DNA of 64,000 nt from Rickettsiales bacterium (GCA_018062985.1 JAGORE010000001.1:12661-76660), one strand, 5' to 3'. Counted from the stretch's first letter, positions 17,916 through 23,284 are shown. Numbers and translations: made by a program. The notes: a model not told the origin generated them from the letters alone.

Positions 17916-19832
17916 GTGGGTGATTTAGATCAAAATATAGTAGGAACAGTTGGAGTGGTTATTGTTGATAGTCACAATCAGTATGCTATACACAATATTT
18001 CTGAACAAGAAGAGCAAACTGGAACACATGCTGATCTCAAGGAAGTAAGTTTAGTTATTGATACAGTGGTGCTATTTCCCGATAGTGTCAATGTTATGAA
18101 TAATTTTGCAGATGCAACTCATACTAGTATCACTATCGACGATAGTAGAATTTGTACTGTAGATAAAGCAAGCAACAAGCCATTCTTTAGTTTGCTTAAT
18201 CCAACACAAGATAAAGCGCTAGACAATAGTTTTGCCGCTTATTCACAAGATTTTCTTCATTTTCTCTATAACACTTATGTATCAGTGAATGAGTTTTTGA
18301 AACAACATGATCCATTTCCAAATTTTTTAGTCATTCCAGGGGTAGCTGCACAAAGAGGCGCAGCTCGTGCGGCTGCTTCAACATCTGCAACGCAACGAGG
18401 TAGTTCAAGTAGATATAGGACGTCTTCCTTTGATTCATCCTCTCTTCCTGCACCAGCAAACTACAATATTCCACCTGCTGCCAATAGTAATTTTAGAGCA
18501 CCTGTTTTTCCGGGAGACGCACCACCTATTCGATTCTCAACGCAAAGAACTACACCATCCACCTTTCCCATGAGTACTCCTTCTACGGCTTACTATCCAA
18601 CAAACGGGATGGGGATGGTGCGTCAGTTTCATGAACCTGCCAGCATTTTCTCGCCAACCAATTATCCGTCTTATCAATATCCTGGTCTCAGCTTTCCTTC
18701 AAGCAAGCCCTTTTCTTCTTCCAGTTCTTTAAGCTCATATCCAAGCTCTAGCTCTTTTCCTTCTTATTCCATCACGCCTAAGCTTCCAACGCTTAGTTTT
18801 TCTTCATATAGTCCTCTTTCCTCTTTCAGCGTTGTTCAACATCTTGGCTCTACTCCTTCCACCGCGTACTCTCTGGGTGAACCTACTGATTTTAGCTCAC
18901 ATTTTCGCCCCCTCTCTGAAATCTATTATATTCCTCTTCCTACAAAAGAGATATTTCCAGAATTTCTGCATGTGTCATTACCTGAGGTGCTCCAAATCCA
19001 AGGACTTACACTGGAAGATTCAAACCACTTGAGAGAATGGAAAGTGGCCAGGCATAAGTTCTACATGCAAAGAATCCAATGGGCCTTAAAACAAACATAC
19101 AGAATTTTATTTATAAATTGTATTCCTATAGATGAAGAATACATCAAAAACATCTTACGAAAAGTTGACTTAGCAGTAATTGAGAATGCCTTAGCCAGCG
19201 GCTTTGTACTTAATACTTTAGCTTCGCAAGCAGATTCTGAGCTCTATATCCAGAGAATGAAATATAGACAAGAAGTCGTAAATGAGAACTATGCAAACTA
19301 TCAAGCTTGGTTTCTGTATCAAGAGCTTATCGAGCAAAGACAAAGAGCAAAATATAAAGCAGAAGAGCATGCAAATGCCAAACGCTCTGCTGCTGGGGCA
19401 TCTAACGGCGGCAATGGTGGAAATTCTACAGGTAGTGATAATATTGATGAAGTGGCAAAGGCTGCTAAAACTGAAGATGCTCCGTCTGATTCAGCTCAGC
19501 AAGGCATTAGCCACTTGCCACAATTGAGGCAAGAATATATAAAAGAAGTAAGAGGGTTAACTGAAGTTGTAGATAAACTGCGAAATCAAGGAAAGACTCC
19601 TGAAGAAATTGCTCGTATAGTTAGTAACATGAGACGTGATCTCGGAATTAAGTATAAAGATATGACACCTCCAGAATTACGGGACATTTATTACAAAGCG
19701 AACATTAAAGAGTACGGTGATCCGCTTGGTCCAACTGTAGAACACCTGCGGAGCGAAGGCAAAACTTGGGAGGAAATAATTGCGAGCGCTTGTAGAGAGG
19801 GAGGAAGGGGTTTGCCTGGAACAAAAATTTAG
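17916..19832 (+). CDS. polymorphic-toxin-like protein: unrecognised N-terminal region, S/P/F/Y-rich disordered segment, helical pre-toxin region, G/N-rich junction and a C-terminal module of about 130 aa
   Basis: 638-aa ORF; GTG start, uncertain, no obvious SD. Residues VIENALASGFVLNT and AAGASNGGN recur at the start of the downstream orphan cassettes. Followed 15 nt later by a small putative immunity ORF. Confidence 0.7.
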   Translation: MGDLDQNIVGTVGVVIVDSHNQYAIHNISEQEEQTGTHADLKEVSLVIDTVVLFPDSVNVMNNFADATHTSITIDDSRICTVDKASNKPFFSLLNPTQDKALDNSFAAYSQDFLHFLYNTYVSVNEFLKQHDPFPNFLVIPGVAAQRGAARAAASTSATQRGSSSRYRTSSFDSSSLPAPANYNIPPAANSNFRAPVFPGDAPPIRFSTQRTTPSTFPMSTPSTAYYPTNGMGMVRQFHEPASIFSPTNYPSYQYPGLSFPSSKPFSSSSSLSSYPSSSSFPSYSITPKLPTLSFSSYSPLSSFSVVQHLGSTPSTAYSLGEPTDFSSHFRPLSEIYYIPLPTKEIFPEFLHVSLPEVLQIQGLTLEDSNHLREWKVARHKFYMQRIQWALKQTYRILFINCIPIDEEYIKNILRKVDLAVIENALASGFVLNTLASQADSELYIQRMKYRQEVVNENYANYQAWFLYQELIEQRQRAKYKAEEHANAKRSAAGASNGGNGGNSTGSDNIDEVAKAAKTEDAPSDSAQQGISHLPQLRQEYIKEVRGLTEVVDKLRNQGKTPEEIARIVSNMRRDLGIKYKDMTPPELRDIYYKANIKEYGDPLGPTVEHLRSEGKTWEEIIASACREGGRGLPGTKI

Positions 19833-19847
19833 AAATGAGGATTGATA

Positions 19848-20156
19848 ATGAAAGGACCGTTTTTTCAGCAAAATCGAATTGGTTATGAGATTCTTTGGGA
19901 CTCTTGTTTTGATGATGTTGATATTGCTGTTGACAAAATTAAGCTCAAATATGATGTGAATATAAAAGAAAAAATTGAAGTTTTTGATAGTTATTGGATT
20001 GTATCTGATATTAATCAGAAATATACTATATGTGTTAGATATCACGATCCTGTGGGGCTTAGGATTTATGCTGAGAATGAAGAATCAAATATTATTGTAA
20101 CTGAGATAGCAGAATATTTAGATAAAGAGTTTAATGGTTTAAAGAAGAAGCAATAA
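19848..20156 (+). CDS. putative cognate immunity protein of the 17916-19832 toxin (family not recognised)
   Basis: 102-aa ORF 15 nt downstream of the toxin stop with GAGGA 6 nt upstream of ATG 19848 (ORF open from TTG 19842). Position and size match toxin-immunity pairs. Lacks the Cys4 motif of the other four. Confidence 0.5.
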   Translation: MKGPFFQQNRIGYEILWDSCFDDVDIAVDKIKLKYDVNIKEKIEVFDSYWIVSDINQKYTICVRYHDPVGLRIYAENEESNIIVTEIAEYLDKEFNGLKKKQ

Positions 20157-20299
20157 AATGTTTAAAAGATATTGGGATTTTAAAATAAAAGATATAGCTC
20201 TCTGTCTTCACCAGGATAACTTTTTAGGAATTAGTCTTTTTGCTGCTGAAGCAAAAGAGTTTCTTACAAATTGAAATCTAGATTTTTTTAAAAGGGTGT

Positions 20300-20441
20300 T
20301 TTAACTGTATTCAGAAGATAAAATGCTAATGTTTACCATGGCTATGTTGTGACGCCAGAAGTGTTGCGTTCTCGTGAAACAGGTGCGCATGCGCTACTTC
20401 GTAAACTTAAGATTGTGGATAAAAATGGAGAAATTAAGTAA
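20300..20441 (+). pseudogene. 3' remnant of an orphan toxin module (same family as 21609-22082), 5' part deleted
   Basis: Encodes ...VYHGYVVTPEVLRSRETGAHALLRKLKIVDKNGEIK*, homologous to the last 35-40 codons of the 157-aa toxins. No upstream handle or start. Stop overlaps the next immunity gene by 17 nt, exactly as in the intact cassettes. The left boundary is approximate. Confidence 0.7.
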
Positions 20442-22082: not shown

Positions 22083-22374
22083 TAACACTGGTTCGGTAGA
22101 GTTATGCTGCAAAAAGATGAGCTTTGCTGTCAACAAAGAGCATATCATTGATCACGAAGATAATGTAAGAAATTATAATATACGTGGCAGAAAAAGAAAT
22201 TATAATATAGCATACTGCCCATGGTGTGGAAAAGATCTTGGTAAAGCATTAAATTGGGAATATTTTGAGATCTTAGCAAAAGAATATGGGATTGAAGATC
22301 CTGATTTTGTAAATTTTACTAATGTTCCAGAAGAATTCAAAACAGATGCATGGTGGAAAAAGCGCGGTCTTTAG
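22066..22374 (+). CDS. Cys4 putative immunity protein, cassette C
   Basis: 102 aa. CCKKM...YCPWCGKDLG...NWEYFEILAKEYGIEDPDFVNFTNVPEEFKTDAWWKKRGL. Confidence 0.65.
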   Translation: MEKSYNNTGSVELCCKKMSFAVNKEHIIDHEDNVRNYNIRGRKRNYNIAYCPWCGKDLGKALNWEYFEILAKEYGIEDPDFVNFTNVPEEFKTDAWWKKRGL

Positions 22375-22443
22375 TTAAAGTTTTAATTAAACAGTCCTGT
22401 AGTAGTAGAGAGTGCGTTAGAGAGTGGTTTTGTCTTAGAGACC
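22372..22443 (+). repeat. inter-cassette junction repeat, copy 3
   Basis: Same sequence as copy 1 without the internal duplication. Directly precedes ATG 22444. Confidence 0.85.
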
Positions 22444-22917
22444 ATGCTTATGAGATCGCCATTTTATGGACAATGGCAAGCAAAAAGAGCTGCAGAAAAA
22501 GAAAAAGCTGCTAAACTAGAGAATGCTGCTGGGGCATCTAACGGCGGCAATTGGAATAACGGTACTGGTACAGATTCTGGTAGTAAGTGGTTTCAGTGGT
22601 TTAATGCGATTGACGAGGCTTTTGATCCACGTACTTGTTTATATAAAGAATCTCCAGCGCATACCGGAAGCAATAAGCACAAGAGCCGCGCACCAACAGA
22701 TGGTCAAAAGAACTTGCCTAATTCATATAGATTCTCAGAAAGTGGCAGAGTGTCTGTTGACTTAGATAATACTGAGATTATAATATACAGAAGAGAGCGG
22801 CCGAATGTTTATCATGGCTATGTTGTGACGCCAGAAGTGTTGCGTTCTCGTGAAACAGGAGCATATGCATTACTTTTTAAGCTTGATATAGTAGGTAAAA
22901 ATGGCAAAATCAAATAG
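22444..22917 (+). CDS. orphan toxin module D (157 aa; identical to module C at residues 3-138, divergent 19-aa tail)
   Basis: Protein identical to C except F2L until ...LRSRET. The tail is GAYALLFKLDIVGKNGKIK versus RAHALLYKLKMVDKRGEII in C. Confidence 0.6.
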   Translation: MLMRSPFYGQWQAKRAAEKEKAAKLENAAGASNGGNWNNGTGTDSGSKWFQWFNAIDEAFDPRTCLYKESPAHTGSNKHKSRAPTDGQKNLPNSYRFSESGRVSVDLDNTEIIIYRRERPNVYHGYVVTPEVLRSRETGAYALLFKLDIVGKNGKIK

Positions 22918-23209
22918 CAATACTGTAGACAAAGTTTTCTGTTGTGAAAAGATGGGATTTGCAATCAATAAAGAACATATTATTGATTATGATGATTGTG
23001 TAAGAAATTATAATCTGTGTGGTGACAAAAGAGACTATGCTATCCTATATTGTCCATGGTGTGGGAAAGATTTAGGTAAAAGATTAAATTGGGAATATTT
23101 TGAGATATTAGCAAAAGAATATGGGATTGAAGATCCTGATTTTGTAAATTTTACTAATGTCCCAGAAGAATTCAAAACAGATGCATGGTGGAAGAAGCGG
23201 GGTCTTTAG
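22901..23209 (+). CDS. Cys4 putative immunity protein, cassette D
   Basis: 102 aa. FCCEKM...YCPWCGKDLG. The C-terminal half is near-identical to cassette C and the N-terminal half is divergent. Confidence 0.65.
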   Translation: MAKSNSNTVDKVFCCEKMGFAINKEHIIDYDDCVRNYNLCGDKRDYAILYCPWCGKDLGKRLNWEYFEILAKEYGIEDPDFVNFTNVPEEFKTDAWWKKRGL

Positions 23210-23284
23210 TTAAAGTTTTAATTAAACAGTCCTGTAGTAGTAGAGAGTGCATTAAAGAGTGGTTTTGTGTCGGAGTTTAATTGA
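23207..23284 (+). repeat. inter-cassette junction repeat, copy 4 (terminal stub with no toxin module behind it)
   Basis: tagttaaagttttaattaaacagtcctgtagtagtagagagtgcattaaagagtggttttgtgtcggagtttaattga. The handle frame reads NSPVVVESALKSGFVSEFN* and then stops. Confidence 0.8.

Follow-up and report, generated by a model that had tools for sequence, protein, structure and literature searches.

A chromosomal polymorphic toxin locus was analysed in the metagenome-assembled genome (MAG) of an uncultured Rickettsiales bacterium (GCA_020049755.1, NCBI). The stretch of DNA used, referred to here as the window, is 64,000 nucleotides (nt) long. The locus consists of a main toxin gene, its putative immunity gene imm0 and a head-to-tail array of stored toxin-tip/immunity units that ends at ~23275, just before tatB. 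The reading adopted, at a probability of roughly 0.85, is a toxin/immunity locus on a small carrier protein found in a single lineage, with C-terminal displacement as its mode of evolution.

Polymorphic toxin systems were judged as described (Zhang et al. 2012; Jamet & Nassif 2015). The C-terminal toxin varies between homologues and is common to other carrier types, an immunity gene lies directly downstream of each tip (by position and recurrent pairing), and orphan cassettes share homology with the main gene's constant region. At the N-terminus, no trafficking or secretion domain was recognised with Pfam, NCBIfam, PHROGs or PDB sequences, nor was a signal peptide found. The first-pass annotation, made from the DNA alone, had proposed a locus with orphan tip/immunity cassettes of the CdiA-CT/Rhs-CT kind, and this proposal is supported by a related full-length gene and by the constant-region tails that the cassettes carry. 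The cassette types and the delivery puzzle are already published. New here are the carrier family, a record of displacement across three genomes and the assignment of a role to the Pfam family DUF6980.

C-terminal exchange among related loci

The main gene was confirmed as an open reading frame (ORF) of 638 amino acids (aa), as first predicted, and its product matches KBC27_00175, a hypothetical protein annotated in an NCBI Rickettsiales bacterium MAG, at 100% identity. It ends in a tip termed toxin A, and the predicted small ORF of 102 or 104 aa, depending on the start, follows as imm0. Three related contigs (L007, L008 and L028; samples JGI 3300038435, SRR22387826 and ERR2851138) were used for comparison. 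L007 (JGI 3300038435) holds a syntenic copy with main gene, imm0, a remnant of a second tip type (toxin B), a DUF6980 gene and the next unit. Its constant region ...SALESGFVFETIFMRSPLYEQFKAKRAAEKEKAAKLENVAGSGGGGN runs into toxin A and corresponds to the linker that had been noticed as shared among the units. L028 (Logan ERR2851138) has the same synteny (main gene, DUF6980 gene, tatB, petCBA) and no orphan array. There, the main gene passes from ...ASPVVIESALESGFVLETMFMRSPFYEQFKAKRAAAREKAAKLENVAGSGGGNWNNGTGTDSGSKW... into toxin B, and the DUF6980 gene behind it overlaps it.

Since the full-length L028 gene carries toxin B with DUF6980, and the window and L007 carry toxin A with imm0 on the same N-terminal family, members of this family carry different C-termini, as had been named beforehand as the outcome to look for. 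By the same comparison, the orphan units of the window are displaced C-terminal cassettes of such a gene. Directly after imm0, the window retains 45 terminal codons of a toxin-B tip together with the immunity gene of that tip (unit 1). This remnant is orthologous to the intact L028 tip and is also present in L007. Because unit 1 corresponds to the L028 tip and immunity gene, toxin A and imm0 are taken to have displaced toxin B in the lineage of the window and L007. Array content varies between relatives.

Identity to the window protein is unevenly spread over the carrier. The N-terminal region is 73% identical in L028 and 38% in L008. The middle part of the L028 carrier (672-2411) is only 32-41% identical, as opposed to 73% at its N-terminal region, so the gene is a mosaic. 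The L028 carrier also has its helical pre-toxin module in two copies, of the pattern ...ID.EY(I/V)R.V.....(L/V)(L/I)ESAL..G(L/F)(I/V)L(D/E)....

Toxin tips and immunity genes

Three toxin types are present in the locus, namely toxin A, a colicin-E3-like tip and toxin B. Toxin A is a ~105-aa all-alpha domain with the invariant motifs RRxLGIKYKDMTP and DxLGP, and it matched no Pfam family. At 44-60% identity it ends the unrelated carriers of four other contigs (L001-L004): a 2797-aa protein (1943-10336) of an alphaproteobacterial MAG with an imm0-like ORF behind it (L001), an Rhs-type tip with an Rhs-type core end in an orphan array (L002), a 1292-aa surface protein with a signal peptide (L003) and a Coprococcus contig (L004). 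The imm0 gene begins 16 nt after the toxin A stop. Its L007 counterpart shows 78% identity, and the ORF behind the L001 protein 29% (E 1e-6). The occurrence on unrelated carriers, together with the imm0-like ORF after the L001 toxin, argues that toxin A is a genuine polymorphic-toxin warhead shared by horizontal transfer.

The tip of unit 2, once corrected for a frameshift, passed the threshold of PF09000 (Cytotoxic, colicin E3 rRNase) with 29.6 bits (cutoff 22) and matched PDB 1e44_B (E 4e-4). The catalytic Asp/His/Glu are invariant in an alignment of eight homologues. Toxin B, the tip of units 1, 3 and 4, matched the CdiA-CT of PDB 5t87_E (phmmer E 6e-5, residues 1-57 of 76) and shares the motif RVSVD...E...VYHG with 5T87 chain E. 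The match is weak and specific, being the sole meaningful PDB match in either search. Toxin B resembles a CdiA-CT-like toxin of the 5T87 type (NCBI cd20695; rCRCT-3a), with two putative alleles in the window. A distant homology between E3-like and toxin-B tips was not supported (hhalign probability 0.3%).

All four small ORFs of the array passed the gathering threshold of PF22400 (DUF6980), which is 27 bits (scores in the table). In an alignment with 35 homologues, the family signature comprises an invariant CC...CPWCG and the C-terminal EEFK(T/S)DxWWKKRGL-COOH. The N-terminal half is variable. The tail is nearly invariant and stands exactly at the C-terminus of 39 homologues that are otherwise 35-50% identical, which is unusual for an immunity protein.

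DUF6980 genes directly follow E3-type or 5T87-type tips in six other genomic contexts. In Rickettsiales bacterium Ac37b (L009), a protein of FHA type with at least 2238 aa and a toxin-B-like tip is followed by an overlapping DUF6980 gene, and a 487-aa LysM + Cytotoxic orphan and a 463-aa orphan are each followed by one as well. The other contexts are a 1018-aa protein of a Babeliales MAG with an E3-like end (recognised by eye, no Pfam match; L010), a 594-aa Cytotoxic protein followed by two DUF6980 genes (L012), a 913-aa inverse autotransporter with Cytotoxic domain (L025), a 242-aa Cytotoxic protein followed by three (L026) and a 329-aa protein with a weak PT-HINT match and a Cytotoxic domain (L027). 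At least five types of carrier are represented (FHA/CdiA-like, inverse autotransporter, HINT-like, the 242-aa and the 1018-aa protein). As DUF6980 directly follows tips of both types on different carriers, its position and recurrent pairing make it a well-supported immunity family for E3-type and 5T87-type tips. No PDB sequence was matched with a single sequence or a profile, including the immunity chain (CdiI) of 5T87, and no mention of DUF6980 was found in the literature searched. In a further contig (L006, JGI metagenome), a 185-aa ankyrin-repeat protein (422-979) with overlapping start takes the place of DUF6980 after the E3-like tip; the toxin-B unit behind it is 5'-truncated. The putative immunity partner of the E3-like tip is exchanged between close relatives.

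Carrier protein, cassette array and surroundings

Features of the locus and its surroundings are listed in Table 1. The main protein is made up of five parts: a conserved N-terminal region of ~150 aa, a Ser/Pro-rich low-complexity segment, a helical module, a Gly/Asn linker and the exchangeable toxin. Residues 1-160 were matched only by P0007 (73% identity) and by P0006 and P0009 (38%), and the family form of the invariant motif is DPFP(N/D)FL(V/L)I(P/Q)GVAAQRGAA (alignment of relatives). Residues 161-345 consist to 62% of S+P+T+Y+F. The corresponding segments of relatives are similar in composition and non-alignable. This part is probably disordered, with which its composition and AlphaFold2 predicted local distance difference test (pLDDT) values <50 are compatible without being proof. 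Residues 346-~490 were predicted to be all-helical (low confidence) and are 65% identical in P0008; the ~50-aa module in this region reads ...IDEEYI...VIENALASGFVLNT. A possible promoter, ~34 nt upstream of the GTG, was missed by a scan rule that required T at position 6 of the -10 element.

Table 1. Features of the toxin locus and of its surroundings in window coordinates
Feature	Position	Strand	Basis
Possible sigma-70-type promoter (TTGACA, 17 nt, TAATTA)	17854-17882	+	read by eye
Main polymorphic toxin gene, GTG start, 638 aa	17916-19832	+	ORF list
Lineage-restricted N-terminal region, residues 1-160	17916-18395	+	family alignment
Invariant motif DPFPNFLVIPGVAAQRGAA, residues 132-150	18309-18365	+	alignment columns
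Low-complexity segment, residues 161-345	18396-18950	+	composition
Alpha-helical constant region, residues 346-~490, with ~50-aa module ...IDEEYIKNILRKVDLAVIENALASGFVLNT before toxin linker	18951-19385	+	predicted
Flexible Gly/Asn/Ser-rich linker (AAGASNGGNGGNSTGSDN...)	19386-19505	+	repeat search
Toxin A, ~105-aa all-alpha C-terminal domain	19506-19829	+	homologues on other carriers
imm0, putative toxin-A immunity gene, 102 aa from ATG (104 aa from 19842)	19848-20156	+	position, homologues
Unit 1, 5'-truncated toxin-B tip remnant, last 45 codons (NVYHGYVVTPEVLRSRETGAHALLRKLKIVDKNGEIK*)	20301-20442	+	tblastn, L028 orthology
Unit 1 DUF6980 gene, 102 aa	20425-20733	+	PF22400 34.1 bits; closely resembles L028 P0014
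Junction 1	20734-20824	+	alignment with main genes of window and L007
Unit 2, linker + colicin-E3-type rRNase tip, frameshifted	20825-21235	+	homologue comparison
Unit 2 DUF6980 gene, 105 aa, divergent N-terminal half	21234-21551	+	PF22400 52.9 bits
Junction 2	21552-21608	+	without the 12-nt duplication found in junctions 1 and 3
Unit 3, linker + intact toxin-B tip, 157 aa, CdiA-CT 5T87-like	21609-22082	+	PDB match
Promoter-like site (TTGACT, 16 nt, TATAAT; 11/12 matches) in unit 3 toxin-B ORF	21922-21949	+	consensus match
Unit 3 DUF6980 gene, 102 aa, GTG start, overlaps toxin end	22066-22374	+	PF22400 35.9 bits
Junction 3	22375-22443	+	alignment
Unit 4, linker + intact toxin-B tip, 157 aa	22444-22917	+	ORF list, tblastn
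Promoter-like site, repeated in unit 4 toxin-B ORF	22757-22784	+	consensus match
Unit 4 DUF6980 gene, 102 aa	22901-23209	+	PF22400 32.8 bits
Terminal junction stub	23210-~23275	+	repeat to ...GAGTGGTTTTGTG, then divergence = array end
564-aa Lys/Glu/Gln-rich ORF	5804-7498	-	
1247-aa pentapeptide-repeat protein	26214-29957	-	
23S and 5S rRNA genes	53623-56629	+	
TpsB-type transporter gene, 558 aa	58564-60240	-	Pfam
142-aa signal-peptide ORF	60240-60668	-	

Searches with the main protein returned little outside its own relatives. No match to TPS, FHA, YD, PAAR, LXG, WXG or MafB domains was found in Pfam (E<=1) or NCBIfam. The two-partner secretion (TPS) and FHA models of Pfam, including PF05860 and PF13332, and the colicin/pyocin translocation or receptor domains (e.g. 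PF03515, PF06958) gave no match at E<=1, and no YD repeat or Rhs core with its DPxGL cleavage motif was recognised by Pfam. The N-terminal 495 residues matched nothing in Pfam and NCBIfam (E<=1), PHROGs (E<=0.1) or PDB sequences, in line with the initial view that no known trafficking domain is present. The protein also has no signal peptide, as had been stated, and no transmembrane segment (maximum Kyte-Doolittle 19-residue score 1.31). When residues 1-495 were searched exhaustively with HMMER against 1.84 billion (1.84e9) representative proteins, four matched, all of them fragments of relatives. The sole match of a word-index search with the whole main protein was the protein itself, probably through swamping by low complexity. 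A metagenome scan with the helical module gave no match, nor did tblastn of the main protein or DUF6980 against plasmid sequences, and the window holds no paralogue of the N-terminus. Weak matches to SoDot-IcmSS (E 0.035, 14.6 bits, cutoff 25), to a PHROG attachment protein (E 0.024, below threshold) and to designed helical repeat proteins in the PDB were dismissed; all were below threshold and either inside toxin A or unrelated. On this sequence evidence, the carrier N-terminus is a tiny, lineage-restricted protein family that is new here.

The array comprises three full cassettes, one of them frameshifted, and one remnant. Its repeats are far beyond chance (tblastn between units E 1e-16 to 1e-108), and a repeat copy follows each of the last four small-ORF stops. 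Junction and linker are the coding tail of the constant region, ...SPVV(V/I)ESALESGFVLETMFMRSP...GGGNWNNGTGTDS. Each stored cassette holds ~45-60 nt of this tail and the linker, then a tip and an overlapping DUF6980 gene; in DNA alignments, the ~45 nt that precede each orphan ATG match constant-region sequence of the L007 main gene. In junction 1, ~25-45 nt are unit-specific and the rest is a remnant of the constant-region tail, in frame ...VVVESALESGFVLET-MFMRSP, whose counterpart in the intact L028 gene reads ASPVVIESALESGFVLETMFMRSP. The main-gene linker and those of units 3 and 4 share a 52-nt stretch with 79% identity, of which the first 27 nt are identical (19388-19439 vs 21689 and 22524). 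A 22-nt linker pattern matched 12 contigs; these matches were dismissed as chance because none of the contigs was related by tblastn.

Unit 1 (20301-20733) has neither junction nor linker, and its overlapping 102-aa small ORF is intact. The unit 2 tip is split over two frames by loss of one A from an AAAA run (20981-20983), as compared with the intact 138-aa homologue P0005 of L006, and the start of its DUF6980 gene overlaps the toxin stop (ATGA). Units 3 and 4 form an 835-bp tandem duplication in which ~400 nt are 100% identical. A block of ~240 nt is ~70% identical over the last ~20 toxin codons and the first ~62 immunity codons, and identity is 97% afterwards. Accordingly, the two tips are 94% identical with differences in the last ~20 residues, and the two DUF6980 proteins are 78% identical with differences in the first ~62 codons. 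The divergent block is dense in both synonymous and non-synonymous differences and is therefore an old allelic patch, of the kind to be expected of a co-varying toxin/immunity interface. Both toxin-B ORFs contain a promoter-like site ~120 nt before the start of the DUF6980 gene, and by this consensus match the DUF6980 genes may have internal promoters of their own.

The array had initially been described as four tandem full cassettes, each with junction, linker and its own variable toxin domain. The tandem arrangement and the 835-bp spacing of units 3 and 4 stood up to analysis, and junction and linker were found in units 2-4. One unit turned out to be a remnant lacking both, one is frameshifted and two are near-duplicates. 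Units 3 and 4 bear the same type of tip, so the locus holds three toxin types rather than five different tips. The terminal stub, placed at 23207-23284, is present with the slightly smaller extent given in Table 1.

The locus is flanked by uvrA and ssb upstream and by tatB, then petCBA, downstream. Its placement between uvrA and tat/petABC, with no integrase or transposase within +/-10 kb, was as first described. The top NCBIfam match of tatB is a Rickettsia-type TatB. The window has a GC content of ~33%, and its 23S and 5S rRNA genes have no adjacent 16S gene. A split rRNA operon is typical of Rickettsiales, so both features fit a genome of this type.

Several other genes of the window were recorded. 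The 558-aa TpsB-type protein, encoded ~35 kb from the toxin locus, matched Pfam ShlB/FhaC/HecB with 45.5 bits (cutoff 22.7) and ShlB-type POTRA_2 with 24.0 bits (at cutoff). The 142-aa signal-peptide ORF lies directly upstream of and overlaps this gene, with no large TpsA partner. The transporter is implausible as exporter of the main protein, because the latter has neither a Sec signal nor a TPS domain. CdiB has been reported absent from all Rickettsiales genomes (PMC9111745; bioRxiv 10.1101/2023.02.26.530123). Near petABC, the 1247-aa protein has C-terminal pentapeptide repeats behind a long unannotated N-terminal part and shows weak NCBIfam similarity to PipB/PipB2 type III effectors and Qnr proteins, which makes it a candidate host-directed effector. 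The 564-aa ORF is coiled-coil-looking and matched no Pfam family; it has a weak IQ calmodulin-binding-like motif (E 0.03), lies in a region of strongly negative AT skew (-0.47) and looks like a eukaryote-like protein.

Delivery, rival readings and known systems

In the proposed course of events, toxin A and imm0 would have been acquired and would have displaced toxin B, and recombination between the shared tail/linker and a cassette would re-arm the main gene. DUF6980 proteins would bind and neutralise their cognate tips through the variable N-terminal halves and would be kept expressed, protecting against kin toxins. The tips would kill by cutting rRNA or other RNA, the E3-type acting on 16S rRNA. 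The main protein would be Sec-independent, with the conserved N-terminal region as the likeliest handle for export or import.

Some observations weigh against this reading. The sequence is a MAG, and no secretion machinery is linked to the locus: components of type IV (T4SS), type I (T1SS) or type VI (T6SS) secretion systems are not encoded in the 64-kb window, and no CdiB/TpsB transporter gene lies within +/-10 kb of the locus. Unit 2, as described above, is frameshifted. The main gene itself is frameshifted at three different places in L007 (~480-610), L008 (~715-730) and L028 (~670-700), and only the window copy is intact. These frame changes fall in or just after the GVAAQRGAA motif and the Ser/Pro-rich region; they may reflect decay, phase variation or misassembly in or near low-complexity sequence. 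Finally, the main-gene tail of the window has diverged from the cassettes over a ~90-nt segment, leaving the 27-nt identical stretch and another of ~25 nt that is similar. Homologous recombination may therefore have become a poor means of re-arming in the window, less so in L007.

Rival readings differ from the displacement reading mainly in how, and whether, the main protein is delivered. The N-terminus had been called a delivery domain at first, which is not supported; AlphaFold2 models reached a pLDDT of 35 for residues 1-160 (4 sequences) and 40 for residues 330-638 (2 sequences). Such a role would be suggested mainly by this part being the most conserved of a fast-changing gene. A dedicated secretion system elsewhere in the genome (rvh T4SS or T1SS) that recognises the N-terminal ~150 aa, with bacteria sharing the host cell or vacuole as targets, is held as a tentative possibility. 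It is consistent with an N-terminal region that is the best conserved in the family, invariant motif included, next to a variable middle and tip, and with literature in which rCRCT/A toxins are without a characterised pathway and rvh T4SS and T1SS are named as candidates (PMC9111745; bioRxiv 10.1101/2023.02.26.530123). The lack of T4SS and T1SS components in the window speaks against it. The T4SS and T1SS signals known so far mostly lie at the C-terminus, and an exchangeable C-terminus is a poor match for that. More doubtful is a soluble nuclease bacteriocin of the colicin/pyocin kind, released as toxin-immunity complex without a signal peptide, in which the disordered N-terminus would thread into the outer-membrane and Tol/Ton systems of a target cell, with the helical part as receptor-binding and the C-terminal nuclease as killing element. 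The lack of signal peptide and transmembrane segment and the long low-complexity N-terminal half followed by a helical region would agree with it; the size of 638 aa and the order of putatively disordered, helical, toxin and immunity parts resemble the T-R-C layout of nuclease bacteriocins (PMC5536347), and one cassette is a colicin-E3-type rRNase. E3-type tips are also found on FHA-type and inverse-autotransporter carriers, however, and the warhead is therefore uninformative on the route. Against a bacteriocin stand also the absence of a colicin/pyocin translocation or receptor domain (Pfam E<=1) and of a PDB sequence match, and that of a lysis or release gene (small lipoprotein ORF) in the locus, an SOS box not having been searched systematically. 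Orphan arrays with constant-region homology are typical of contact-dependent systems, and the disorder is deduced from composition and low-confidence AlphaFold2 models only.

That the locus is a decaying or selfish remnant, whose carrier no longer delivers and whose cassettes act as addiction-like pairs or as an immunity stockpile against toxins of neighbours, is considered unlikely. The frameshifted unit 2, the remnant in unit 1 and the interruption of the main gene in all three related contigs would agree with it, as would the promoter-like sites just upstream of the immunity genes and the reports that Rickettsia toxins are mostly degraded, with lone antidotes in excess (PMC9111745; bioRxiv 10.1101/2023.02.26.530123). 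The window, however, has intact copies of the main gene, imm0, all four DUF6980 genes and two toxin-B cassettes. Relatives share the conserved N-terminal region, and units 3 and 4 keep distinct co-varying alleles of toxin end and immunity gene. Moreover, the frameshifts occur in short metagenomic contigs, in or beside the low-complexity region, and may be assembly errors. A host-directed effector, with toxin and eukaryote-like Ser/Pro-rich segment aimed at the eukaryotic host and with immunity for the producer alone, appears quite improbable. An intracellular-type genome (Rickettsiales annotation, split rRNA operon, ~33% GC) and the host-addiction role proposed for polymorphic toxin loci of Ca. 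Bodocaedibacter (PMC8163844) would be compatible with this. Yet toxin A, E3-type and 5T87-type tips occur in free-living or gut bacteria on antibacterial Rhs and CdiA-like carriers, interbacterial competition is what multiple immunity alleles and orphan arrays point to, and no eukaryotic targeting motif was identified in the protein.

The displacement reading may be extended by a conjecture against which the odds are clearly set. The N-terminal ~150 aa and the Ser/Pro segment might form a compact, Sec-independent delivery chassis for Rickettsiales polymorphic toxins, through colicin-like self-import or a novel secretion signal, alongside DUF6980 as a versatile immunity scaffold with a generic role of the invariant tail and specificity in the variable half. 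If true, this would answer how CdiB-less Rickettsiales deliver toxins of the CdiA-CT type. For that question, the locus supplies an intact full-length carrier of short size whose tip swap is documented in three related genomes, and it is a practical construct for probing export and killing. In addition, a Pfam domain of unknown function gains a well-supported role.

The phenomenon, at first taken to be undescribed, has published precedents: 5T87-like modules and the missing secretion route have been reported (PMC9111745; bioRxiv 10.1101/2023.02.26.530123), and so have unrecognisable main proteins with orphan-bearing loci in an alphaproteobacterial endosymbiont (PMC8163844). This is a caution that a first reading can overstate novelty where the cassette types are already described. 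The endosymbiont in question is Ca. Bodocaedibacter vickermanii from Bodo saltans, with its polymorphic toxin systems I-III (Midha et al. 2021, PMC8163844). Both organisms are alphaproteobacterial intracellular symbionts, and in both the main toxins are without recognisable homology, the orphan modules share N-terminal homology with the main gene and host or competitor is left open as target. In contrast to the window, the Ca. Bodocaedibacter vickermanii genome has a T6SS, proposed as route, and no sequence relation was found between the two.

Colicin E3 (PDB 1E44/1JCH; PF09000) is resembled by the unit 2 tip, which passes the family threshold and keeps the catalytic Asp/His/Glu. The signal-less layout with putatively disordered N-terminus, helical part, C-terminal toxin and downstream immunity gene is likewise that of E3-type bacteriocins. 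Unlike in colicin E3, colicin/pyocin T and R domains and a lysis gene are absent from the locus, and the immunity protein belongs to DUF6980 and not to the colicin E3 immunity family. In this genome, the tip that would be expressed is toxin A instead of the rRNase.

5T87-like rCRCT/CRCA-3a modules are known from Rickettsia and Ac37b through the work of Verhoeve et al.; they are integrated into hemagglutinin-like and LysM toxins or stand alone, show rapid turnover and have no CdiB or known secretion route (PMC9111745; bioRxiv 10.1101/2023.02.26.530123). Toxin B of the window shares their defining feature, a resemblance to the CdiA-CT of PDB 5T87, and the Ac37b hemagglutinin-like toxin cited there ends in a toxin-B-like tip, then DUF6980. 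DUF6980 is not named in those papers, in which the antidotes are related to no structure, and the MAG of the window does not appear in the searched parts of their tables. In contrast to rCRCT/CRCA-3a, the window modules belong to a 638-aa carrier without FHA, Rhs or LysM and form an ordered array with constant-region homology.

Different from CdiA and Rhs proteins, the window protein has no TPS domain, FHA repeat, VENN motif, YD repeat, PAAR domain or adjacent CdiB, and the point of demarcation is a Gly/Asn-rich linker after a ...ESGFVLET(M/I)FMRSP motif. The arrangement as a whole is that of CdiA-CT/CdiI orphan arrays (Poole et al. 2011, PMC3150448), in which promoter-less tip/immunity pairs, each retaining part of the constant region, stand behind a full-length gene. 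As in CdiA-CT and Rhs-CT displacement (for Rhs, Jackson et al. 2009, as cited in PMC8163844), the remnant of a displaced tip stands beside a still-intact immunity gene, and the content of the array differs between relatives.

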